From the IMG/VR virus record IMGVR_UViG_3300037467_000627: a stretch of 64,000 nucleotides of DNA. One strand, 5' to 3'. Below are positions 3,411 through 64,000 of the stretch, one piece after another. Made by a program: the position numbers and the translations under genes. Positions within the stretch are counted from its first letter, which is position 1, and each line of letters starts with the position of its first letter. Under the pieces are notes generated by a model. That model was not told the origin of the DNA. It saw nothing but the letters and a program-made list of their open reading frames with translations, and made no database searches. This DNA is from a virus.

Positions 3411-4534
3411 GCTGTTGCCTCTGCTCTTCCTTCTTCTCGGGGGACTCCAACGGCGATGTAACCTGATCCGCCGTCTACCTTCCAGGGTTTGGAGGTGTCG
3501 TCAGGGTTGTAGTAGATGACGACCTTATCGGACGGGCAGTTACTAATCCCGTCGATGATGTTCTGGGGTGTGAACTTCCAGGTCACGCGAGGGTGCGCGG
3601 CCTGGTTGCCGTTGAGCAGGATGCTGTCGCCGAGGAGGCCCATCTCCTGGTCGGCACCCATGGCGGCGAACTCACCCTTACCGACGATAACCGAGATGGT
3701 CGGCACGTCTCGCTCGTTCTGCGTCATGATGACCGCACGCTGCAAGATGTCGAGGATGCCAGACTTGTTGACCTCGATCATCGCCGGTGGCGTGTACTGA
3801 GCGAAGTTGGAGACGTTCGGAAACTGCACATCGTAGATGACTGTGCGGATCTGTGTCGCCTCGTCAGGCATGAGTAGGAGCGTGTTGTCCACCATGCCCA
3901 TCTGGCAGTCAGCCTCGGGCCGTAGTACCGCGCCCAGGATGCCGGACGGGATCGTCACGGGTGCCGGTAGCTCGACAGCACAGGGGATTAGCGCCATCCT
4001 GTAACGATCGGTGGCCGCTATGGCGTGCCCGTTCAAGTGAACGCCCGTTAGTGGTGGCTCGCCACGCTTGGCAGCTGCCCACTCCACCGCCGCGATCAGC
4101 GCGCCGAACTTCTCCACGTTGGACAGCTCGCCAGGCGGGATGGGGTGCCACTGTGGATAACCCTCCGGGCGCATCATGTTGAGGCGACCACGAGAGCGCT
4201 GCTGCGTCAAGTGGACCTGTGCGCCCTTCTGCTCCATCGTCATCGTCTGACCTGAGCCCAGCGGGTACGAGCCGATGATCGAGGCGAGGATGGAAGATGA
4301 CAGGCGCCACACGACAGACTCGCTGGCTGTGACCTCCAAGGCGGGCACCACCTCCAGGTAGAACACCTCCAGGTTGGTGGCCTTGAGGGTGACCTGGTTT
4401 GGGTAGTGAGGGCTGATCTCGAAGATGATTCCAGCCGAGCTGTCCAGTGCCTTGCCCGCCTTCGTGGGTGCAATCCGGCTTGCCTTCTTGATCGCGGAGG
4501 CCAGTGTGGCTACCTCGAACTTGAGCTTCGTCAT
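3407..4534 (-). CDS. dnaN: DNA polymerase III beta sliding-clamp homologue
   Basis: 375 aa, DnaN-like length and N-terminus (MTKLKFEV...AGIIFEIS...VTLKATNLEVFYLEV). Confidence 0.7.
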   Translation of the reverse strand: MTKLKFEVATLASAIKKASRIAPTKAGKALDSSAGIIFEISPHYPNQVTLKATNLEVFYLEVVPALEVTASESVVWRLSSSILASIIGSYPLGSGQTMTMEQKGAQVHLTQQRSRGRLNMMRPEGYPQWHPIPPGELSNVEKFGALIAAVEWAAAKRGEPPLTGVHLNGHAIAATDRYRMALIPCAVELPAPVTIPSGILGAVLRPEADCQMGMVDNTLLLMPDEATQIRTVIYDVQFPNVSNFAQYTPPAMIEVNKSGILDILQRAVIMTQNERDVPTISVIVGKGEFAAMGADQEMGLLGDSILLNGNQAAHPRVTWKFTPQNIIDGISNCPSDKVVIYYNPDDTSKPWKVDGGSGYIAVGVPREEGRAEATA

Positions 4535-4785: not shown

Positions 4786-5357
4786 CAGGCGAGATCCTTG
4801 ATCCTCAGGTAGCCGTCCAGCATCCACCGGTAGCGGCTGACAGTGTCCTCGAGGTCGGGGCGCACGCGGTGCATCTCGCGACTCGGAACGTCGGCGTCCA
4901 TCCTGACGTACAGATCGGGGTTGACGATCTTCATCGTCTCGATGATCGAGGTGATGTCGATGTTCCGGTAGTGGAAGCGCTCAACCAGAGGGTCGGGAGC
5001 GTGCCACTCCATGAAGGAGCGATCGAACTGCACCGAGCTGCCGCACATCGGGTGCTTGCTGATGCCGTTCGTGACGACGAAGTGATCGAGCGCCTCCCAG
5101 GCGTGATGCTCGATGGCACCTTCCTTCTTGTTGATGACCGACTGGAACAGGCCGGAGTTCGCGTGCATCTTCTTGACGAACGGATCAGCGCTGACATCCC
5201 AGTTGTACTGCTTGGGGTCGTACTTGATCAGGGTGTCGAACCAGTCCAGCTCCTGCCCCCACTGGTCGGTCACCATACAGCCAACCTCCATGACGATCTC
5301 GGTCCGTGGGTTCAGGCCGCTGGTCTCCAGGTCGATCCAGAACATCTTGTGCATCAT
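4782..5357 (-). CDS. DEDDh 3'-5' exonuclease, oligoribonuclease (Orn)-like
   Basis: FWIDLETSGL (Exo I), CGSSVQFDRSF (Exo II region), HYRNIDITS and MHRVRPDLED (H-x4-D, Exo III). Co-linear with Orn as I remember it. Confidence 0.8.
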   Translation of the reverse strand: MMHKMFWIDLETSGLNPRTEIVMEVGCMVTDQWGQELDWFDTLIKYDPKQYNWDVSADPFVKKMHANSGLFQSVINKKEGAIEHHAWEALDHFVVTNGISKHPMCGSSVQFDRSFMEWHAPDPLVERFHYRNIDITSIIETMKIVNPDLYVRMDADVPSREMHRVRPDLEDTVSRYRWMLDGYLRIKDLAW

Positions 5358-5551
5358 TTCTTGGCGCTCCCGTATGCGTCGTTGACGAGGCGCTCTGCCT
5401 CGCTGTGAGGGATTCTGTAGTCACCGTTCTCGCCGCCGAACTTAGCGGCGTTAATCTTTCCATCGCGGATCCAGGCGCGGATGGTTTGCTGCTTCATCTT
5501 CAGCAACTTGGCGAGCTCGGCAGTCGTGTAAAACTGTTCGATCCCCGTCAC
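5354..5551 (-). CDS. helix-turn-helix DNA-binding protein (excisionase/MerR-like HTH)
   Basis: 65 aa. YTTAELAKLLKMKQQTIRAWIRDGKINAAKFG is a typical HTH_17-type motif. Confidence 0.7.
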   Translation of the reverse strand: MTGIEQFYTTAELAKLLKMKQQTIRAWIRDGKINAAKFGGENGDYRIPHSEAERLVNDAYGSAKK

Positions 5552-7053
5552 GCAGCATCCTCCTCTTCCTGCAGGGCGGCAATAAGCTTCCGCTTGAAGT
5601 CTCCATCATCCTCGTTGACGATCATCCCGAACAGGTTCGTCTTTGTTCGGAGGATAGCCTCTACGCGAGACTCGATCGTGCCTCGACACTGGTACTCGTG
5701 GATCTGGACAGGCTGCGTCTCGTCAGCGCCGATACGGTGCATACGGTCGATAGCCTGCTGGTTCATGCCTGGGGTGAACAACTTGTCGATGAAGAACCCA
5801 TGTCTGGCTGCCGTCATGTTCAGGCCGACGCCCGCGACCTGGAGCATGCAGACGATGACATTGCCTCGGTAGCTGAGGTTCTGCCCACCCCACGCCTTGA
5901 CGATCGCCTGCCTCTCGGACTTGGGAACGTCGCCGTGAAGCTCCCAGATTCCAGTCTCGGGAGCCTCGGCATCTAGGCGCTGACAGAATTGCTCGAGGAC
6001 ATCCCTAAACTGGGTGAAGACGACGCACTTATCGCCGTTCTCCGAGACCTGCAGAACATCGTTGACGACCTGATCGAGCTTGGCTGATATGTCCTTGCCG
6101 TTGAAGCTGAGCGTAGTTCCGCACACCTGCTTGAGCCGGAGGAACTTCGTGAGGGCATTCTCGATCTCCTCTGGCCGGTCAAGGTCAACTCGATCCACCT
6201 GAAGCTCGGTGCGGATCTGCTCGTAGATCCTGCGCTGCTCGGTATGCAAGTCCACGCCATGCTTGATAATCTGAACCTCGGGGAGATTCAGAACCTCAGA
6301 CTTCATGCGACGCAGCATGTACTTGCCGAGGCGACGTTTGAGCTCGGCTTCGTTCTTGACGCCGGTGATCTGCTTGTTCTTGTATCCGCCGAACACACAG
6401 TACCGGCCGACGAAGGTCCAGTACTTCGGGAACTCGTGCGGCGCCACCGAGTACAGCAGTGACCAGAGCTCATCCGGCCGGTTCAGCATCGGCGTACCTG
6501 TCATCGGGAAGGTGCGGGGTGCCCGAAGCTTGTGCCATGCCTTGGTTCGCTCGGCCTTGGGATTCTTGAGCAGGTGCGCTTCGTCCGCGAACCGGTGGCT
6601 GAAATTCATCTGATTGAAATCGTCGACGTGCTTGACGAGCAGCTCATAGTTGACGACCATGAGCTTCGGTCCCTGGATGTCCATGAACGTTGACAGCTGC
6701 TCGTCGCGCTTGGATGGCGACAGCTTGCGAGCTACGCCCTTCTCGTCGTATTCGATTCCGCACAGCATGATGGGGAACCGCGTGAAGTTGTGCGTCTCGT
6801 CGTACCAGTTACCCAGCAGACCTGCAGGGCAGACGACGATGGCATTGTTGGCCCAGGGCTGCTCGGGCGTGGTACGCATGACATCTGCAGCGTAGACAGT
6901 CAGCGCTTGCAGCGTCTTGCCGAGGCCCATGTCGTCGGCCAGGATAATGGACTGCTGGCGCAGCATCCGACGCACACCCTCAAGCTGGTGAGGGTAGTAC
7001 TCGATCGAGTCAAAGAGCCAAGGCTCAAGACTCTTGCGATGCTGCAGGCTCAC
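5548..7053 (-). CDS. SNF2-family helicase / DNA-dependent ATPase
   Basis: LADDMGLGKT (motif I), DEAHLLKN (II), TGTPMLNRPDELW (III), VVFTQF, VAGVGLNMT, QQAIDRMHRIG (VI). Confidence 0.9.
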   Translation of the reverse strand: MSLQHRKSLEPWLFDSIEYYPHQLEGVRRMLRQQSIILADDMGLGKTLQALTVYAADVMRTTPEQPWANNAIVVCPAGLLGNWYDETHNFTRFPIMLCGIEYDEKGVARKLSPSKRDEQLSTFMDIQGPKLMVVNYELLVKHVDDFNQMNFSHRFADEAHLLKNPKAERTKAWHKLRAPRTFPMTGTPMLNRPDELWSLLYSVAPHEFPKYWTFVGRYCVFGGYKNKQITGVKNEAELKRRLGKYMLRRMKSEVLNLPEVQIIKHGVDLHTEQRRIYEQIRTELQVDRVDLDRPEEIENALTKFLRLKQVCGTTLSFNGKDISAKLDQVVNDVLQVSENGDKCVVFTQFRDVLEQFCQRLDAEAPETGIWELHGDVPKSERQAIVKAWGGQNLSYRGNVIVCMLQVAGVGLNMTAARHGFFIDKLFTPGMNQQAIDRMHRIGADETQPVQIHEYQCRGTIESRVEAILRTKTNLFGMIVNEDDGDFKRKLIAALQEEEDAA

Positions 7054-16708: not shown

Positions 16709-16782
16709 TAGCGGGAGAGGGCTTCGATCCCTCGACCTCCGGAGTATGAGTCCGGCGTTCTGCCAGGCTGAACTATCCCGCA
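16709..16782 (-). tRNA. tRNA-Met (anticodon CAT; could be Ile2/lysidine type)
   Basis: Cloverleaf: D arm GTTC/GAAC, anticodon arm CCGGA-CTCATAC-TCCGG, T arm GAGGG-ATCGAAG-CCCTC, acceptor GCGGGA/TCCCGC. No encoded CCA. Ends accurate to about 2 nt. Confidence 0.8.
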
Positions 16783-34543: not shown

Positions 34544-34861
34544 TCAGATCAGCTCCACACCGACGATACCGGCGATGTCGCGATACATCTGCTCGGCCCA
34601 GTCGATCATCTGCTGGGCCTGGTAGGCGCCCTGCTGGTTGCCAGCTGCGACTGCCTCGTGGCGGTAGTCCGGCACCGACTCCATGATGTACTCGAGCGCG
34701 TTGAGCAGCATGGTCATGTCCGACAGGTTCCAGCTGGTGTGGTACACAGTGCGCGCCATGTGACTGCCTCCGGCAACCTGGACGGGCACTGTCAGGTACT
34801 TCATCATGGCCTCGTGAACGGCATCAATGCCTTCATCCGAGCCAAAAGTCTTGGTGATCAT
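34544..34861 (-). CDS. hypothetical protein
   Basis: 105-aa ORF. Confidence 0.65.
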   Translation of the reverse strand: MITKTFGSDEGIDAVHEAMMKYLTVPVQVAGGSHMARTVYHTSWNLSDMTMLLNALEYIMESVPDYRHEAVAAGNQQGAYQAQQMIDWAEQMYRDIAGIVGVELI

Positions 34862-57092: not shown

Positions 57093-57145
57093 GATAGCAC
57101 ACCGGCCCAGGGTCCGCCATCGCCCTGGGCCGGTGTTGTGCTATC
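57093..57145 (+). terminator. long stem-loop after the major tail gene
   Basis: GATAGCAC-ACCGGCCCAGGG / CCCTGGGCCGGT-GTtGTGCTATC: 13-bp core stem plus an 8-bp extension, 10-nt loop. Confidence 0.6.
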
Positions 57146-57186
57146 ATCCGCAGTCAAGATCCATACGCCTTAGAAGGGGCACCAGG

Positions 57187-57753
57187 ATGCCAAGCAACGA
57201 TTACGACCCGACCTATCCCAACGAAGAGCAGCCGACTCAGCTCGATCACAGCGGGCACACGGTGGTGAGTCAGGGTACCGATGTCGACGAGGTCATCATC
57301 GAGGACTACTGGGGTACGAGCGAGACCACGAAGTACTTCATGCCGGACGGCGTGCAGTGGTTCGAGATCAAGAAGATGAACGAGGGCGACCGGTCTCGCT
57401 ACCAGTACGAAGCTCAGCTCAAGATGACCACGAAACGCAAGACCGGCGACACCGAGATCGACCTGGACCAGGCGAAGGATCGCCGCGCCCTGATCATGAA
57501 CTCGGTCGTCAACTGGCACATGCGCAAGGAAGGCGTCTGGCTGCCGTTCAATCGGCAGGCCCTCGGCGCGTGGATCGTCGCGACCAACCCGAACTACGTG
57601 GACAACCTGATCTCCAAGATCCGGAAGTTCAACCCCTTCCTCCAGGAAGACCTGTCGTCGGCCGACATCCGCGAGCAGATCAAGGACCTCGAGGAGATGC
57701 TCGTGGTCGCCGAGAAGCGCGAGGCCGAGGCGGATTTTTCACCCGCCAAGTAG
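57187..57753 (+). CDS. tail assembly chaperone (gpG-like)
   Basis: ATG at 57187 (GAAGGGG RBS). Located between the major tail and tape measure genes, with a -1 frame ORF overlapping its 3' end. Confidence 0.7.
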   Translation: MPSNDYDPTYPNEEQPTQLDHSGHTVVSQGTDVDEVIIEDYWGTSETTKYFMPDGVQWFEIKKMNEGDRSRYQYEAQLKMTTKRKTGDTEIDLDQAKDRRALIMNSVVNWHMRKEGVWLPFNRQALGAWIVATNPNYVDNLISKIRKFNPFLQEDLSSADIREQIKDLEEMLVVAEKREAEADFSPAK

Positions 57754-57992
57754 AGCTGTTCGTTGACGACAAGCCCATCCCTGGGCAGTGGCACGGCGCT
57801 CTCGAGCTGATCAACTGGATGATCCTGTCCCAGTTCACAGTTTGGCCTGAAGCCGGAGGTCTCCTCGATCAGGATCCACTCTTCCTGCGTCGACTGGGGC
57901 AGTACACAGTCCTCAAGTCACGGGCGGACGAGAGGAAGAAGGCGCAGGAGAAGAACAAGAGCCCCAACGTGAGGCGTAGGGGCAGGCGATAG
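57187..57992 (+). CDS. tail assembly chaperone, -1 frameshift product (gpGT-like)
   Basis: ORF 57357..57992 is in the -1 frame relative to 57187..57753. A T5 run (57735-57739, G GAT TTT TCA) lies 4 codons before the G stop. Confidence 0.6.
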
Positions 57993-57994
57993 AT

Positions 57995-58130
57995 GTGCCC
58001 AGTCGTTTAGCGGCCTAGGACGCTCCGGGGAAGTCGAAACCGACTGAGTAGGACCACCGGTTAGTGCGGTAGGACTCGGAGAGGTCGGCCAGCCGGAGAA
58101 ACACTGGTTCAAATCCAGTCGGGCACGCCA
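57995..58130 (+). ncRNA. 136-nt tRNA-like gene with encoded CCA and a ~64-nt insertion in place of the anticodon loop
   Basis: Acceptor GTGCCC(A)/CGGGCAC, discriminator G plus CCA. D arm CGTT-TAGCGGCCTAG-GACG. Stem TCCGG (58024)...CCGGA (58093). 5-nt variable GAAAC. T arm ACTGG-TTCAAAT-CCAGT. Confidence 0.55.
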
Positions 58131-58163
58131 TCCCCCATTGCTTGACGAAGCGATGGGGGATGG
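58128..58163 (+). terminator. stem-loop following the tRNA-like gene
   Basis: 11-bp perfect inverted repeat CCATCCCCCAT / ATGGGGGATGG with a 14-nt loop, followed by CTTATCTTAT. Confidence 0.5.
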
Positions 58164-58236
58164 CTTATCTTATGCCTGCACTCGGGCACAGTGGAGGCCC
58201 ATGACTGGACCTTAAGGTCAGCGAGGGAGATTCACT

Positions 58237-61200
58237 GTGCAAGGCTACATGAACATTACTGTTCGTGTTGCGGCAGCTCGAGCTCAGCAGCAGATCAAGC
58301 AGCTGCAGAGTCAGGTTGCAATGCTGGAGCGTGAGTTGGGCCGCGCCAGCGCTGCCGGTGGTTCTTTCATCGGAGACAAGCACATCTCCGCGATGGCCAA
58401 GTGGGGTAATCAGGTCCAATGGACCGGCAGACAGATTACCTATAACTTCACTCTGCCCTTGGCGATCGCTGCCGGTGCGGCTACGAAGTGGCAGCTAGCG
58501 AACGAGAAGGCCTTCACGCAGGTTCAGAAGGTCTACGGTGACACTCAGGCGGCGGCCGCCTTCTACATGAAGACCCAGAAGGGTCTCACGCAGGAGATGG
58601 CTAACCAGAAGGCCACCGAGACGTTCAATCATGAACTTGAGGCTCTCCAAAAGAACTTCAAGGCGCTGAGTAACTACTACGGCGTACAGCAAGACGAGGT
58701 CATCAACGTCGCCGCAGCCTGGGCTGCCGCTGGAGCATCCGGCAAGGATCTCGCGGTCGCGACAGATGCCACGATGAAGGCCATCATCCTGGGCGATATG
58801 AACGCTGCCGATGCTACGCAGGCGCTCATCTCGATCCAGTCGCAGTATCAGCTGAACAGCGAAGAGTTGATGAAGACTCTGGCGCAGCTGAACGCAGTTG
58901 AAAACCAGACCGGCATCTCGATGCAGGGTCTGATTGAAGGCTTTGAAAGAGCCGCTGGGACGGCGCGCACCGCTGGAGTCTCTACTCGCGAGCTCGCCGC
59001 CATGCTGGCCGCACTCACACCTGCCACTGGTTCCGCCGCGAACGCTGGTAACGCCCTCAAGACCATTCTGTCTCGCCTCATGGCTCCGACCAAGCAGGCT
59101 GCAGACGTCATGGCCGAGATGGGCATCAACGTCACCGACATGAGCTGGAAGTCGGCCAACGGCGCTGAACGCCTCAAGATTATGGAGCAGCGCTTCGATA
59201 AGCTGTCTGACTCCGGCAAGGCGTTTGTCAGTTCGATTATCGCCTCGCGCTGGCAGGTGAACAAGTTCGACGTCCTGATGCGAGAACTCGGTAGCTCGAC
59301 TGGGTTCTATCAGAAGGCTCTCGATGCCACATCGTCGGACACCAAGGTCTTCCAGATTGCTAACCAGGAGCTCCAGAAGGTTCTTGACAGCAATCCGCGC
59401 AAGCTACAGATCATCTGGGCCACACTTCAGAACGGCGCGGCAGATGTAATCCAGCCGCTCATCCCGTACATCATCTATCTGGCCGGTGTCATCAAGGATG
59501 CCGTCCTGGCCTTCCAGGACTTGCCGCCCGTCGTACAGAAGGCTGCTCTGGCGCTGGCGATCATGGTCGCCCTGTTCGGACCACTTCTGAAGTACTTCGG
59601 TTCGACTGCAACACTTATTGGGCAGCTAGGACTGTTCTTCGGTAAGTTCCTGGTGCTCCCGGTACGGGCCGCTTCATTGGCGCTCGGGGGATTGGGGTTC
59701 GTCCTATCCAGCGTCGGTACGTTGTGGGGTGCAACGGTCGGCATCCTAGTCCGTGGCGGCGCGGCCGTAGCTACCGGCATCGGAGCAATGGCTGCTGGCG
59801 TAGTCAGGTCGTTCGGTGCCGTCGTCGTAGGCGCTCGCGTTCTCGCGGGCATCCCTGCGGCAGTCTTTGCTACCTGGCGCGGAGCCATGGCGGCGATGAT
59901 GGGAGCCTGGGTCGCCTTCGGTGCGGCAGTCCGTGCGGCATGGCTTGGCGTGCAGCTCGGAATGATCGCTGCGACGAGGATGGGAGCTATTGCTCAGGCT
60001 GGCCTCCAGGCCACCATGATGCGCTCCTGGATGATCTTCCTCGGTGCGTGGCGTACGACTGGCATGGTGATGTTCGGCGCAGCTGGCATCGGCATGCGCA
60101 CCGCCCTACTGGCCGCCCTCAGTCCAGCGAAGTTGTTCGCAGCGATCGGCGCAGGTCTTTCGCGCCTCGGTCCGCTCCTTCTTCGGTTCATCACTGGTCC
60201 GGTCGGCCTAGTCGTCACGGCAGTTATCACCCTGCTCCTTCTGTGCCGCAAGCAGATCGAGCAGATCTGGACAAACATCTCTGACTGGTGGAACAGCAGT
60301 AACAACAACCTAGTCGAGAACATCATCAAGGCTTGGTACGCCCTCCCAGAGGGTGTGCGCAACGCGCTAGTCGCGGTCGCTAAGATCGTCGAGACTGTCG
60401 CGATGAAGATCTACGAACTCTTCAGCTACATCAACCCCTTCGCGCATCACTCGCCATCTCTGGTCGAGAACGTCACGCGAGGCATGGCGGTCATTAAGAA
60501 GGAGTTCGCAGGTCTTGGCTCTATTGAAGGCGACATCAAGGGCGCCTACCGAGCTATCAAGGCTTTTGGTGGAGCAGCTGCCGCCCTCGGTCTGGATGAC
60601 TTCAGCCGTGACCTAGCGCAGATGAAGGAGTTTGCTCCTTCGCTCGTTCCAGGCTTCATGGCTCTCCATGGCGTGCTCGGAGTCCTGAACAAGGATCTCG
60701 CCGTCATGGAGCAGCGCATCGCTGCCCAGAAGGCTGTTGTAGACAGGTGGTCTGCTGCGCTGGACGCAGCCAACGCTCGCCTCGACGCGGCGCAGGACAA
60801 GCTCGACGCGCTCCAGAAGATTTCGCAGAATTACTCGGATCTTCTTGACGCCGCGAAGAGCAGGCTTCAGGACTGGGCTGACACGCCCATTCAGGGCATG
60901 CAGGCGATGTCCGACAAGATCTTTGCCAACGAGATGGCGCAGAAGAAGCTCCGTCTCGAGATGATGAAGATGGAGGACGTAGTCGGTCCTCTGGATGACA
61001 TCAAGGGCAAGATTGACGCGATCAACGGCTCGCAAGAGTTGCTGCGCGGACAGCAGGCTGACCTCCGATCTGCCGGTGCCGGTTCCGAGATCCTCAAGGT
61101 CTACGACCAGGAGATCGGCAAGCTTGAAGAGCAGAAGAACACGTACGGCGACGCGTCTGAAGCACTGCAGAAGATGCAGGATCAGCTCGACGCATTGCAG

Positions 61201-64000
61201 CGCGCAGGTGAGCGTCTCGACCTTGAGAACTCCCTGAAGTTCGACCCACTGACTCGTCAGATCCAGCAGGCGTCCAACGCTATGCAGGAGATGCCCTTCG
61301 ATGTCATCATGGCGGGCATCAAGGGGTCGAAGGCTGATGTCGACAAGTACACCAATGCACTCAACACTGCCAACGCGGCAGTCGACAAGCAGAAGCAGGT
61401 CGTAGATCAGCTGACGGCTGCCCGCGACGCGACAAGTAAGCAGCTTGACGTAGAGAAGGCGAAGCTTGACAAGCTGAACGACGCTTACTCGGCACTCAAG
61501 GATGCGATCAACGACGTCGAGTCTGCGATGCGCGACATGTCAGCTGCCGCCCAGGCTGCTGAGTCTGCACAGAAGGCGAAGAAGGCAAAGGAGGGTGGTC
61601 CCCTCACTCTAGCCGACATGCAGGGTGGAGACTTCGCCGATGTCGGCGGTACTGGTGTCCAGCTTCGCAAGGACTGGAATGACCAGTCTGCTTTGATCGA
61701 TCAGCTCACGAAGGATTTGCAGACTAAGGCTGCGAACGCCTTCAAGGGTATCGACATGTTCGGTCCGATCAAGCAGAAGTGGAACGAGTTTAAGGGCTGG
61801 TGGACCGCCAATATCAGCCCAATCTTTGCGACGATCGGCGATTTCCTCAGTCACATCTTTGACAATGTAGACTGGGGTGGAATCTTTGAACCGTTCCAGA
61901 AGGCGGCAGGCTTCATCGCGAAGGTCGGCAAGGCCTTGTGGGCTCTGTTCAGTCCAGCGTTCAAGGAGATTGTCGACGGAGTCAAGAAGGGTATCAAGCA
62001 GTTCTGGGAAGAGGTCGGCCCTGCACTGTCTGGCCTGAAGGACATCGTTGAGCCAACCAGGAAGGCTTGGGCTACGCTTTGGCCAGCCCTCAAGGGTTTG
62101 TTCGGTCTCATCATCGGCGCAGTCCTCCTCGTCCTGACTACCGTCTTTAACATCCTCGGCAACATCATCGGACCTGTCCTTCAGACGATCGGTGCTGTTC
62201 TTAACGGCATCATCGACATCATCAAGGGCGTTATCATGGTCGTCGCTGGAATCATCAGCGGCGACTGGAAGACGGTACTTGATGGCCTCTGGCAGATCCT
62301 CAAGGGCGTTGTTCAGATTATCTGGGGTATCCTCAAGGGTGCCGCAAAGGTAATCTGGGGAATTGTTAAGGGCATCGTCGAAGGTATCGTAGACTTCTTT
62401 ACCTGGCTCTGGGACGTCCTGGTCGGACACTCGATCATCCCAGACATGGTGAACGCCATCATCGCAGTCTTCAAGTGGCTTAACTCGATTCCGAAGTGGA
62501 TCTGGGACAATGTACTGAAGCCGATTGCCAACTTCTTCAAGTCCATCTGGGACAACTTCCTGAAGCCTGGCGTAACAAACATCGCCAAGGGTACGATTGC
62601 GATCTGGCAGGGCATCAAGGCGATTGTTCAGTGGATCTGGCTTAATGTACTTCTTCCGATTGCAAATTACTTCAAGGGAGTATGGACCGGTTATCTGTCG
62701 CCAGCGATCAATACGATCAAGGACGGCATCATCACAGGGTTCCAGAAGATCGGAGCTCTGATCAAGTGGGTCAACGACAAGTTCATCACTCCACTGAAGA
62801 CCGCGTTCTCGCTGTTCACTGACGCCGTTGGCAAGATCTTCGACAAGATCAAGGACAAGATCTCCGGGCCGATTGACAAGATCAAGGGCTGGATCAACAA
62901 CAACCTGATCGACCCACTCAACAAGGTCGTGAAGTTGTTTGGCATCACTATCCCGAAGTTCAGCACGGGTGGTGGGATCAGTACCGAGGGTCACGGGCAG
63001 AATTCTGCGGGTCGTCTGGCTACCGGTGGACCGGTGCGTGGGTTCTCGTCGTCATACAAGGCGGACAACATCCCAGCCTGGCTTACGGCTAACGAGTACG
63101 TGCAGCCGGTGTCAGCTGTTAGACACTACGGCGTCGGTTTTATGGACGCGATCCGCCGTAAGCAGATTCCGAAGGATGCGTTCAGCACTGATGGATTCTT
63201 CCTCGGCGGTCTGATTGACAAGGGCATGAAGACGGTTGACTCCTGGATGGAGAAGGGTCCGGAGTTTGCTGTCAACAAGATTCTCAACCCAGCTATCGGA
63301 ATGCTTAACCGTGGCTTCCCGACGCCAGAGTTTGTGAACAAGATTGCAACCGGAGTTCCAACCTCACTGCGCGACTCCATCATCAAGTGGAGTAAGGGCA
63401 AGTTCACTGCCGATGGTCCAGCTGGTCCTCCCGGAAACGTTGTCAATTATCGAGGTGTGCGACTTAACGAGCGCACCATTCAGATGCTCCTGGCGGCCGA
63501 GAGGATTCTTGGTAAGCAGTTCCACATCACCCAGGGGTCGTACTCCACCAGTGTTGCCGCGTCGGGTTCCACTCACGCAGGCGGCGGCGCGATGGACACC
63601 AACGATGCTGGAGCAGGCTGGGAGCGCGCGCAGAACGCTTTGCGTCAGGTTGGCTTTGCGGCCTGGTGGCGTCACCCGTGGCAGGGTCCATGGAATGATC
63701 ACATTCACTCGATCGCACTTGGCGACCCGACCGCCTCGCAGGCAGCCAAGAACCAGATGGCGGCTTACAAGCGTGGTGGAGATGGACTGGGGCACGGCAT
63801 GTTCGGCGGTGGACTTGTTCCTACCAAGAACGGCGTGATCTCCAGCCTGCGCGGCCTCCAGAGCGGTGCGATCATCAAGGGTGGCCAGGGTGGCACTCAG
63901 GTCGTGATTGGCGAGGGTACGCGAGACGAATTGGTACAGCCGCTGCCGAAGAACTGGAAGAACAACACGGATAGCGGTTCGGGCAAGACCGAGATCCATA
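58237..64000 (+). CDS. tail tape measure protein (5' 1921 codons; continues beyond the right edge)
   Basis: GTG at 58237 behind GAGGGAG (ATG at 58249 in frame). Frame open to the window end, so absent from the ORF track. TP901-type TMP core (TPATGSAANAGNALKTILSRL), hydrophobic Gly/Ala-rich block, W/F-periodic repeats, C-terminal peptidase-like motif. Confidence 0.85.
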   Translation, partial: MQGYMNITVRVAAARAQQQIKQLQSQVAMLERELGRASAAGGSFIGDKHISAMAKWGNQVQWTGRQITYNFTLPLAIAAGAATKWQLANEKAFTQVQKVYGDTQAAAAFYMKTQKGLTQEMANQKATETFNHELEALQKNFKALSNYYGVQQDEVINVAAAWAAAGASGKDLAVATDATMKAIILGDMNAADATQALISIQSQYQLNSEELMKTLAQLNAVENQTGISMQGLIEGFERAAGTARTAGVSTRELAAMLAALTPATGSAANAGNALKTILSRLMAPTKQAADVMAEMGINVTDMSWKSANGAERLKIMEQRFDKLSDSGKAFVSSIIASRWQVNKFDVLMRELGSSTGFYQKALDATSSDTKVFQIANQELQKVLDSNPRKLQIIWATLQNGAADVIQPLIPYIIYLAGVIKDAVLAFQDLPPVVQKAALALAIMVALFGPLLKYFGSTATLIGQLGLFFGKFLVLPVRAASLALGGLGFVLSSVGTLWGATVGILVRGGAAVATGIGAMAAGVVRSFGAVVVGARVLAGIPAAVFATWRGAMAAMMGAWVAFGAAVRAAWLGVQLGMIAATRMGAIAQAGLQATMMRSWMIFLGAWRTTGMVMFGAAGIGMRTALLAALSPAKLFAAIGAGLSRLGPLLLRFITGPVGLVVTAVITLLLLCRKQIEQIWTNISDWWNSSNNNLVENIIKAWYALPEGVRNALVAVAKIVETVAMKIYELFSYINPFAHHSPSLVENVTRGMAVIKKEFAGLGSIEGDIKGAYRAIKAFGGAAAALGLDDFSRDLAQMKEFAPSLVPGFMALHGVLGVLNKDLAVMEQRIAAQKAVVDRWSAALDAANARLDAAQDKLDALQKISQNYSDLLDAAKSRLQDWADTPIQGMQAMSDKIFANEMAQKKLRLEMMKMEDVVGPLDDIKGKIDAINGSQELLRGQQADLRSAGAGSEILKVYDQEIGKLEEQKNTYGDASEALQKMQDQLDALQRAGERLDLENSLKFDPLTRQIQQASNAMQEMPFDVIMAGIKGSKADVDKYTNALNTANAAVDKQKQVVDQLTAARDATSKQLDVEKAKLDKLNDAYSALKDAINDVESAMRDMSAAAQAAESAQKAKKAKEGGPLTLADMQGGDFADVGGTGVQLRKDWNDQSALIDQLTKDLQTKAANAFKGIDMFGPIKQKWNEFKGWWTANISPIFATIGDFLSHIFDNVDWGGIFEPFQKAAGFIAKVGKALWALFSPAFKEIVDGVKKGIKQFWEEVGPALSGLKDIVEPTRKAWATLWPALKGLFGLIIGAVLLVLTTVFNILGNIIGPVLQTIGAVLNGIIDIIKGVIMVVAGIISGDWKTVLDGLWQILKGVVQIIWGILKGAAKVIWGIVKGIVEGIVDFFTWLWDVLVGHSIIPDMVNAIIAVFKWLNSIPKWIWDNVLKPIANFFKSIWDNFLKPGVTNIAKGTIAIWQGIKAIVQWIWLNVLLPIANYFKGVWTGYLSPAINTIKDGIITGFQKIGALIKWVNDKFITPLKTAFSLFTDAVGKIFDKIKDKISGPIDKIKGWINNNLIDPLNKVVKLFGITIPKFSTGGGISTEGHGQNSAGRLATGGPVRGFSSSYKADNIPAWLTANEYVQPVSAVRHYGVGFMDAIRRKQIPKDAFSTDGFFLGGLIDKGMKTVDSWMEKGPEFAVNKILNPAIGMLNRGFPTPEFVNKIATGVPTSLRDSIIKWSKGKFTADGPAGPPGNVVNYRGVRLNERTIQMLLAAERILGKQFHITQGSYSTSVAASGSTHAGGGAMDTNDAGAGWERAQNALRQVGFAAWWRHPWQGPWNDHIHSIALGDPTASQAAKNQMAAYKRGGDGLGHGMFGGGLVPTKNGVISSLRGLQSGAIIKGGQGGTQVVIGEGTRDELVQPLPKNWKNNTDSGSGKTEIH

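Follow-up and report, generated by a model that had tools for sequence, protein, structure and literature searches.

The subject of this analysis is a 64,000-nucleotide (nt) stretch of viral DNA, IMG/VR virus record IMGVR_UViG_3300037467_000627 (hereafter, the window), and, in particular, a transfer RNA (tRNA)-like element at positions 57995-58127 of its plus strand, between the genes for the tail assembly chaperones and that for the tape measure protein. Upstream lie the gene for chaperone G (57133-57753, +) and the frame of the extended, frameshifted chaperone (57357-57992, +; phrog_3096), whose stop codon TAG (57990-57992) ends 2 nt before the element. Downstream, beyond a terminator-like hairpin, the tape measure gene (58237-63999, +; phrog_5448, E = 0) begins with a GTG start and runs off the window. 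Frameshifted chaperones are also annotated in two related phages, Rhodococcus phage Mbo2 and Gordonia phage Orchid. An earlier reading made from the letters alone (the original prediction) had placed a tRNA-like gene with a 64-nt insertion here, and all the features that it described were found in the sequence. At the level of sequence comparison, the element was demonstrated to be a conserved, structured, non-decoding derivative of tRNA-Glu that carries a modular insert.

The element is 133 nt long, including the discriminator G58127, and is organized as a cloverleaf in which the anticodon loop has been swapped for 64 nt; its full extent was indicated by a full-length match to a family covariance model (R1) and by an ARAGORN tRNA call that was obtained only when introns were allowed. 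According to the sequence and the covariation in the family, the acceptor segments are 57995-58002 and 58120-58127, in which GTGCCC (57995-58000) pairs with GGGCAC (58121-58126) over 6 base pairs (bp); A58001 is bulged or in an A:C mismatch with C58120, and G58002 is able to pair with C58120, leaving one surplus nucleotide on the 5' side (A58001, G58002) at the acceptor/D junction compared with ordinary tRNA-Glu. The next segment (58003-58022) comprises the linker U8-C9, the D arm GTTT-AGCGGCCTA-GGAC, which is the same as that of an ordinary tRNA-Glu, and G26. By homology, the D stem is formed by GTTT (58005-58008) and GGAC (58018-58021) around the 9-nt loop AGCGGCCTA, as in tRNA-Glu, so that the pairing CGTT/GACG proposed earlier has to be replaced, and, by the same comparison with relatives, the variable loop is the 4-nt AAAC and not the 5-nt GAAAC. 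The stem at the anticodon position, TCCGG/CCGGA, can be extended to 6 bp as CTCCGG (58023-58028) and CCGGAG (58093-58098), the latter strand being assigned from the sequence and family covariation, and the two strands enclose the 64-nt insert (58029-58092), which was defined by RNAfold and by the R1 alignment of its first hairpin (hairpin A). The variable loop and the T arm ACTGG-TTCAAAT-CCAGT occupy 58099-58119 (T arm, 58103-58119), as supported by a partial Rfam tRNA match and by invariant columns in the family, and the C of the variable loop is able to form the Levitt pair G15:C48. A CCA triplet (58128-58130) follows directly after G58127. Both halves of this scaffold are single-copy in the 64 kb, with chance expectations of 0.02 and 0.00.

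In its default mode, ARAGORN called only a tRNA-Met and a tRNA-Pro over the window and passed over the element, and the result was the same with Rfam at gathering thresholds. At permissive thresholds, the Rfam tRNA model RF00005 matched the T arm alone (13.7 bits vs a gathering score of 29), and the element had no meaningful match to any family other than tRNA. The intron search of ARAGORN, a check that the original prediction had proposed, did return a tRNA, namely a tRNA-Pro(agg) with a 40-nt intron and a long variable arm, but this was judged to be a forced fit; the identities obtained in this mode (Pro, Thr, Gly and others) were overruled, as the amino acid differs from member to member of the family and ad hoc variable arms are needed. 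When the insert was swapped in silico for a 7-nt loop, ARAGORN called the element as tRNA-Glu. Thus, tRNA finders in default mode under-report such genes.

The same architecture was found in 19 distinct sequences, counting identical copies once, which come from metagenomic and IMG/VR contigs of actinobacteriophages and prophages and from cultured phages. The family was collected from public collections with four independent patterns, followed by BLAST with the members. A pattern of D loop and T loop separated by a long gap retrieved the loci designated L015/L017, L016, L031, L040, and L049; a pattern of the 5' junction, L054; a pattern of the 3' half only, L055-L057; and a pattern of insert motifs only, L061-L068. 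The last of these yielded eight new loci, all eight of which have the full tRNA scaffold (84-95 bits on R1), indicating that the insert and the scaffold travel together. BLAST of the members against GenBank phages located unannotated copies in Mycobacterium phages Gaia and Nebkiss (NC_026590, 89765-89875) and in Arthrobacter phage EvePickles, between the capsid maturation protease and the scaffolding protein, and in no others. Most of the pattern matches in metagenomes were false positives made of two ordinary tRNAs in tandem, and scans of cellular genome contigs gave no match, which is not read as absence, since the patterns hit tandem tRNAs in metagenomes and masking is possible. Rfam 15 contains no family for the element beyond the partial tRNA match, and a full-text literature search found no description of such RNAs, which does not prove that they are unpublished.

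The body common to all members is of the tRNA-Glu type, and an ordinary tRNA-Glu(CTC) gene in a metagenome (L048, 293-365) has the identical D arm, GTTT-AGCGGCCTA-GGAC. Across the family, any of the four bases (G, A, C, or T) can occupy the discriminator position, almost every member has an acceptor sequence of its own, and conservation does not extend to the encoded CCA. A usable anticodon loop is absent from all members, and the junctions do not rebuild a 7-nt loop with U33. To place the window copy, we used R1, which was built without the window and its closest syntenic relative, L003, and was calibrated quickly, so that its E-values are rough. Over the 64-kb window, R1 gave one match, covering 57995-58127 at full length with 64.7 bits (E = 2.8e-15 on this rough calibration), and the genuine tRNA-Met and tRNA-Pro were not reported at E-values of up to 10. 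On the same model, the training members scored 90-111 bits, L003 81, L015 65.5, and ordinary tRNA-Glu genes 41-54. The window element can be regarded securely as a tRNA-Glu-type scaffold with an insert at the family position and as the sister of a clear member, L003; its insert, as far as the sequence allows us to judge, appears to match the family module weakly.

The fold is supported by compensatory changes, which were examined in small alignments of 9-10 sequences, as had been proposed in the original prediction. In an alignment of nine scaffolds in which the inserts were replaced by a spacer, 96.3% of the cells were paired and 12 of the 21 pairs were changed on both sides; none of 500 shuffles was as high, and slid registers gave 35-50% paired. 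A full-length alignment of 10 members, excluding the window and L003, was similar, with 94% of the cells paired, 14/25 pairs changed on both sides, no equal among 500 shuffles, and 37-52% paired in slid registers. The acceptor, whose positions were set from their spacing to the D and T arms, irrespective of pairing, had 6/7 pairs changed on both sides in the scaffold alignment; the helix at the anticodon position had 3-4 of 5, and the first insert hairpin had 3/4 in the full-length alignment. The nucleotides that hold together the L shape of a tRNA, namely U8, A14, G15 with C48, G18-G19, A21, and those of the T loop, are invariant in alignment A2, in which the invariant columns are T9, A15, G16, G18, G19, and A23 on the D-arm side and C46, T52, T53, C54, A56, and A57 on the side of the variable loop and T arm. 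The extra nucleotide at the acceptor/D junction (A, then G) is shared by seven members (window, L003, L040, L049, L054, L031, and L057), where it can be described as a bulged A with a G-C pair or as an A:C mismatch with a 3-nt linker; in L062, the extra A is paired with U, resulting in an 8-bp acceptor, and L063-L068, L016, and L056 do not have it. The recurrence of scaffold and insert in 19 sequences with such compensatory changes supports the earlier suggestion of a tRNA mimic or insertion-bearing RNA.

The insert is 40-98 nt long across the family and has the same order of parts in nearly all members. A 2- to 4-bp extension of the closing stem is followed by hairpin A, with a 7-nt loop that fits the T-loop consensus [A/U]UCG[A/U]R[U/G/C], then by one or two more hairpins, which covary within the EvePickles-like clade as judged by eye, and finally by a single strand R-K-GGC(C)CC and the 3' strand of the closing stem. 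The stems of hairpin A covary (GGGG/CCCC, CCGG/CCGG, GUCG/CGAC, and CUG/CAG), and double-sided changes are likewise found among the pairs of hairpin C. In the window, RNAfold gives hairpin A as GUCG-AAAC-CGAC (58033-58044), or, with the flanking pair, AGTCG-AAAC-CGACT; a second, long hairpin at about 58045-58079 has the 7-nt loop GUUAGUG (58060-58066), and the 3' strand of the insert is AGAGGUCGGCCAG (58080-58092). The insert also contains the sub-hairpin ACCG-GTTAGTG-CGGT and two copies of the direct repeat GTAGGAC. The stem GUCG/CGAC is common to hairpin A of the window and that of Gaia (GUCG-AUCGAAG-CGAC). The loop of the window hairpin is 4 nt (AAAC) and not T-like, and R1 aligns it with a 3-nt loop deletion, whereas the 7-nt T-like loop is present in L003, Gaia, EvePickles, and the other listed members. 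The strand of the window that corresponds to the GGC strand, AGGUCGGCCAG, is similar to the AGUGGCCCC, AAUGGCCCC, or GUGGCAGAG of the family, with an extra C and a moderate alignment posterior. Because the tRNA elbow is formed by a T-loop hairpin and a GG-containing strand, the insert may build a second elbow-like knot from its own T-loop hairpin and GG strand. When an antisense target of the window insert was sought within the window, matches of 10-11 nt were obtained at or below the rate for shuffled sequences. As a separate observation, the tRNA-Met(CAT) of the window (16709-16782, -) has a mismatch at pair 1:72 and the T loop AUCGAAG, with A at position 54, which is the same as the 7-nt loop in hairpin A of the Gaia element.

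The same locus was then compared among relatives of the window phage. The DNA of this region has no similarity to GenBank phages; matches of the tail-tube protein place the phage among those of Gordonia, Rhodococcus, and Tsukamurella at ~50% identity, and its hosts are judged, from the hosts of these relatives, to be actinobacteria. In Mbo2 and Orchid, the gap between the chaperones and the tape measure gene is ~95 nt, with no RNA gene and no R1 match. Relatives of the chaperone protein were sought in IMG/VR without result, and syntenic contigs were reached through homologues of chaperone G in a large protein collection. Five contigs were identical to the window at the element, and the window sequence is identical across at least five different samples. 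The element is missing from six lineages that are more distant (60-85% chaperone identity), in which the stop codon is followed directly by the downstream hairpin. In L003 (81% chaperone identity), an element is present at exactly the position of that in the window; its scaffold halves are identical to those of the window at 58/58 positions, compared with 82-89% identity in the flanking DNA, indicating that the scaffold is under selection. Its insert, which is 40 nt long, cannot be aligned with the window insert, indicating that the insert is replaceable on the same scaffold, and its anticodon-position stem differs from that of the window by compensatory changes. An ordinary 75-nt tRNA was found at this site in no syntenic relative; there is either nothing or the same scaffold with a different insert, and not the ordinary tRNA that had been named as a sign of a pseudogene. 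The idea of a decayed tRNA does not hold in its simple form, but partial decay of the insert, with loss of the T-like loop, is possible for the window copy.

With respect to genomic placement, a distance of 2-12 nt separates the upstream stop codon from the start of the element in the window, L003, Gaia, EvePickles, and L061-L068. In the window and L003, it lies between the tail chaperones and the tape measure gene; in EvePickles and six distinct viral contigs, some of them from isolate genomes, it is placed upstream of the scaffold gene, at 8-12 nt from the end of the capsid maturation protease gene, with protease identities ranging from 33% to 79% across these loci. Elsewhere, it is found near the portal gene (L040), within a cluster of unusual tRNA-like genes ahead of the small terminase (L016), at the right genome end, 8 nt after gene 183 (Gaia), and, with its own terminator, beside a prophage integrase (L015). 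A place within the tail operon had been considered unusual; placement in late structural operons in fact recurs, as in the EvePickles clade, and the only proteins common across the family loci are the capsid genes of that clade. The distribution among close relatives is uneven: EvePickles has the element and RadFad, Auxilium, and Persistence do not, and L063 has it and a contig with an 85.6% identical protease does not. R1 gave no match at the protease/scaffold junction of Seahorse, RadFad, Auxilium, Persistence, Eileen, Brevibacterium phage AGM4, and the fecal contig MT836167. No mobility gene, terminal repeats, or target duplications accompany the element at the examined loci. At the same junction, a different GC-rich hairpin cassette of ~55-65 nt with the motif GCATCTTCCC was observed in RadFad, Auxilium, Persistence, and MT836167 (L070, 2700-2822; L071, 2682-2805; L072, 2700-2821; L075, ~2830-2885), and the cassette may encode a further small structured RNA, in alternation with the tRNA-like element.

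The hairpin that follows the element, originally described as having 11 bp (58128-58163), is a terminator-like hairpin of 17 pairs (58127-58164; 58127-58171, +, with its U-rich tail). It is a feature of the phage backbone and not of the element because relatives without the element have it too, and its stem covaries among relatives with and without the element. The encoded CCA is present as had been described, but it is not conserved, sits in the stem of this backbone hairpin, and is replaced by CCG in the syntenic L003. The hairpin, which all relatives share, contains the promoter-like hexamer TTGACG (58142-58147), separated by 18 nt from TATCTT (58166-58171), and the loop TGCTTGACNAAGC and the following TATCTT are constant. 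From these motifs, it looks like a terminator and a sigma-70-type promoter at once. The tape-measure leader downstream (58172-58239) is ~92% conserved between the window and L003, and it contains an inverted repeat, CACAGTG (58187-58193) and CACTGTG (58233-58239), which would enclose the Shine-Dalgarno sequence GAGGGAG and the GTG start and may control the translation of the tape measure protein. The leader also contains TCGGGCAC(A) (58182-58189), which is identical to the 3' acceptor strand of the element 65 nt upstream; this 8- to 9-nt repeat was considered as the mark of a recombination site and rejected, as it does not flank the element. The origin of the acceptor stem as a pre-existing intergenic hairpin, with the core inserted in its loop, was rejected as well, as relatives without the element have no such hairpin.

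Taken together, the element is probably neither a functional nor a broken tRNA but a look-alike. The reading that we favor, with slightly better than even confidence, is that the sequence at 57995-58127 gives rise to a non-decoding tRNA-like RNA that belongs, with a diverged insert, to a tRNA-Glu-derived family of actinobacteriophages and prophages, and that would be transcribed with the late operon, released in the manner of a tRNA, and used as a mimic of the tRNA body. With a start 2 nt past the chaperone stop codon, a terminator-like hairpin downstream, and no separate promoter, the element would be transcribed as part of the late tail-operon RNA, and the start at 2-12 nt after a stop codon in several members fits co-transcription with the upstream gene. 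From what is generally known of tRNA processing, RNase P would then cut at G57995, and the 3' end would be trimmed to the discriminator and CCA. The tRNA body could serve as a handle for processing and stability, with the insert as a variable payload. More speculatively, the mature RNA might work in trans as a mimic of the tRNA body that binds or titrates a host factor recognizing tRNAs by their shape (for example, a defence system or toxin directed at tRNAs, or an enzyme that processes or modifies them) and that never takes part in translation.

Several points weigh against this reading. Cleavage by RNase P, stability, and any function in trans are predictions from sequence. The fold of the window element is only modestly below that of shuffled sequence in energy (z = -1.5 to -1.9), and the invariance of the D and T loops in the family is partly built in, as several of the search patterns fixed those loops. 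The score of the window on R1 is ~10 bits above that of ordinary tRNA-Glu (64.7 vs ~54), a small margin that is due to the 4-nt, non-T-like loop of the first insert hairpin, and this loop, compared with the 7-nt T-like loop of the family, may mean that the payload is defective or different. The patchy presence among close relatives in two phage clades indicates that the element is dispensable for the phage life cycle and makes selfish spread or a purely cis role possible. Furthermore, among the 20 large open reading frames (ORFs) of the window, to which this search was confined, there was no TROVE/Rsr, RtcB, or CCA-adding enzyme/nucleotidyltransferase.

The main rival, which we consider unlikely, is that the element is cis-acting tRNA punctuation that recruits RNase P and 3' processing enzymes to cut the late mRNA, the excised RNA being a by-product. 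Such cleavage would uncouple the stability or expression of the chaperones from that of the tape measure protein here, and that of the portal and protease from that of the scaffold and capsid in EvePickles-type phages. The location in gaps of late structural operons, 2-12 nt after a stop codon and between genes needed in very different amounts, speaks for it, as does the occurrence in relatives of other cassettes or the terminator-like hairpin alone at the same junction, as would be the case if elements for RNA processing or stability were interchangeable; tRNA-like structures within the operon mRNAs of bacteria are known substrates of RNase P. However, RNase P needs only the acceptor/T-arm minihelix, so that the D arm, tertiary nucleotides, and insert kept across unrelated contexts would be unexplained, and there are members outside operon gaps, namely L015, with its own terminator beside an integrase, and Gaia, at the genome end. 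Next, and most relevant to the window copy, comes the view, which is also rather improbable, that this is a selfish or decaying tRNA-derived element, spread by recombination or other mobility with little benefit to the phage, and that the window copy is degenerating. That view draws on the patchiness in two separate phage clades, the window hairpin A without a T-like loop, the R1 score close to that of plain tRNA-Glu, and the unconserved CCA and discriminator, but it has to contend with the absence of an accompanying mobility gene, terminal repeats, or target duplications, with the 58/58 identity of the scaffold between the window and L003 against 82-89% in the flanks, with the maintenance of all stems by compensatory change, which points to purifying selection on the RNA fold, and with the identity of the window sequence on contigs from at least five samples.

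It is highly improbable that the element is a working tRNA with a short intron in the anticodon loop that decodes as tRNA-Glu or tRNA-Pro(AGG) once spliced. The intron mode of ARAGORN does give tRNA-Pro(agg) for the window and similar calls with other identities for other members, and the extra sequence, as in intron-containing tRNAs, interrupts the anticodon-loop region, but the called amino acid changes with the member and requires ad hoc variable arms, the junction nucleotides are unconserved and without U33, and the insert is conserved as a structure. The stem continues with asymmetries of 0-2 nt and 2-4 more pairs and, on inspection of the predicted folds and the family sequences, has no paired 3-nt bulges, unlike the bulge-helix-bulge of archaeal introns, in which a 4-bp helix separates two 3-nt bulges. 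The inserts, at 40-98 nt (64 nt in the window), are too small for group I introns, which exceed 200 nt and have a conserved P1-P9 core, and no Rfam intron or ribozyme family matched, with group I introns giving no match at E-values of up to 10. No tRNA-splicing endonuclease is known from bacteria. The intron-bearing tRNA that the original prediction had listed among its alternatives is, thus, not supported. An integration-site remnant (attP/attB), in which tRNA pieces would derive from site-specific recombination, appears exceedingly improbable: L015, L054, and L057 lie at the borders of prophages or integrative elements, with an integrase, tRNA 3' fragments, or an FtsK-like gene, and L054 has tandem repeats of its 3' acceptor strand, but the element in the window is surrounded by a tail operon, with no integrase close by, and forms an entire cloverleaf with compensated stems instead of a 3' fragment, and a remnant would not keep the 5' half, the D arm, and a structured insert across unrelated genomes.

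The reading as a non-decoding tRNA-body mimic was further compared with known systems. The element matches bacterial tRNA-Glu in the acceptor, D, and T arms, the 4-nt variable loop, and the tertiary-contact nucleotides, but differs in its 64-nt structured insert, its lack of an anticodon loop, and its extra acceptor/D nucleotide, and the family, unlike decoding tRNAs, has no conserved identity elements, as both discriminator and acceptor vary. Transfer-messenger RNA (tmRNA), which is encoded by some phages, similarly combines a tRNA-like domain of acceptor and T arm with a large structured domain at the site of the anticodon arm; however, it is ~350 nt long and has pseudoknots, a tag reading frame, the alanine identity pair G3:U70, and no D stem, whereas the element has G3-C70, and neither ARAGORN -m, including a relaxed threshold, nor RF00023 found a tmRNA at the element. 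The stable RNAs C and D (species 1 and 2) of phage T4 are ~120-140 nt long, are co-transcribed with a tRNA cluster, and are processed by the tRNA machinery; to our knowledge, they have no sequence relation to the element, and the host phylum differs. The use of a tRNA body as a handle for a payload is represented by the tRNA-microRNA chimeras of the eukaryotic virus murine gammaherpesvirus 68 (MHV68) and by the engineered, man-made Escherichia coli tRNA scaffold, in which the payload replaces the anticodon stem-loop, which is the topology of the element. No natural bacterial or phage example of this topology was found in Rfam or in the literature searched. A further comparison can be made with YrlA, the bacterial Y RNA-like tRNA mimic, which is non-decoding, has tRNA-like D and T arms, and occurs in actinobacteria and mycobacteriophages (Chen et al. 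2014, PMC4201824); that of Mycobacterium smegmatis is cleaved by RNase P and has CCA added (PMC4201824). In our own reading, the order of parts in the family insert (stem, T-like hairpin, stem-loop, G-rich strand, and stem) resembles the permuted domain of YrlA, and homology is putative. YrlA is circularly permuted, with the acceptor closed by a loop and the 5' and 3' ends forming a Ro-binding stem with the motif GNCGAAN0-1G, and its gene adjoins rsr (PMC4201824), whereas the acceptor of the element is open, the window sequence GUCGAAAC does not fit this motif, no Rfam Y-RNA model matched, and the 20 large window ORFs include no TROVE protein.

Non-decoding tRNA look-alikes, such as tmRNA and YrlA, are rare, and each has revealed new biology. 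The present family is compact, strongly covarying, and missed by standard annotation, and it combines a constant tRNA body with a fast-changing insert in phage structural operons. A more far-reaching possibility, which we put forward tentatively and regard as doubtful, is that its members represent previously undescribed two-domain RNAs, in which a tRNA-Glu body and an elbow-like insert would be excised from late transcripts by the tRNA-processing machinery to serve as a decoy or sponge for a host factor that senses the shape of tRNAs, such as an antiphage toxin directed at them, with a swappable payload; if so, they would be the natural counterpart of the engineered tRNA scaffold. Should the element titrate a host factor that recognizes tRNA, it would constitute a new RNA-based device for counter-defence or host takeover in actinobacteria, including mycobacteria, and should it act as RNase P punctuation, it would be a new means by which phages set late-gene stoichiometry. 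Gaia and EvePickles are both available in culture and grow on tractable hosts, M. smegmatis mc2155 and Arthrobacter globiformis, respectively.

Other tRNA-like oddities were observed in the examined contigs. The prophage-like L016 has, at 700-1340, a series of abnormal tRNA-like sequences ahead of the small terminase, with successive T arms, one tRNA match with a truncated anticodon arm (702-768), and overlapping or undetermined ARAGORN calls. The viral contigs L018-L027, several of which are ~310 kb long (jumbo phages), contain tRNAs with Glu-type D arms and enlarged anticodon arms or loops (for example, L019, 7034-7112; L022, 1624-1709; L026, 5065-5170; L027, 2630-2723). They have 30-60 nt between the D arm and T loop, most were missed by ARAGORN in default mode, and that of L027 has an encoded CCA; their inserts depart from the plan of the actinophage family. 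In L054, a 15-nt unit, GTGGAACCACGGAGC, consisting of the 3' acceptor strand and 8 nt, is present in ~2.5 tandem copies directly after the element (1355-1400), and the presence of an FtsK/SpoIIIE-type gene at a distance of ~1 kb suggests that this is an integrative conjugative element of actinomycetes. In L015, the interval between the element and the tyrosine integrase (4796-6073) contains, at 4290-4500, a minus-strand 3' fragment of a tRNA and a 70-nt 3' end resembling that of a tRNA or tmRNA (GGGGTTCGAGTCCCCTTAGCTCCACCA), which look like stacked attachment-site remnants. The portal protein ORF of L040 (808-4038, -; 1076 amino acids) includes a LAGLIDADG domain, suggesting that the portal gene holds an intein. 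Finally, Arthrobacter phage Bridgette (L060, ~1141-1229; MH834603, ~34600-34691) has an unannotated tRNA-like sequence that includes a T arm, AGGCCC as the acceptor 3' strand, A as the discriminator, and an encoded CCA. Its 5' part is poorly tRNA-like, and it scored only 21 bits on R1; by BLAST, it is also present in Judy, Peas, Eileen, and others.

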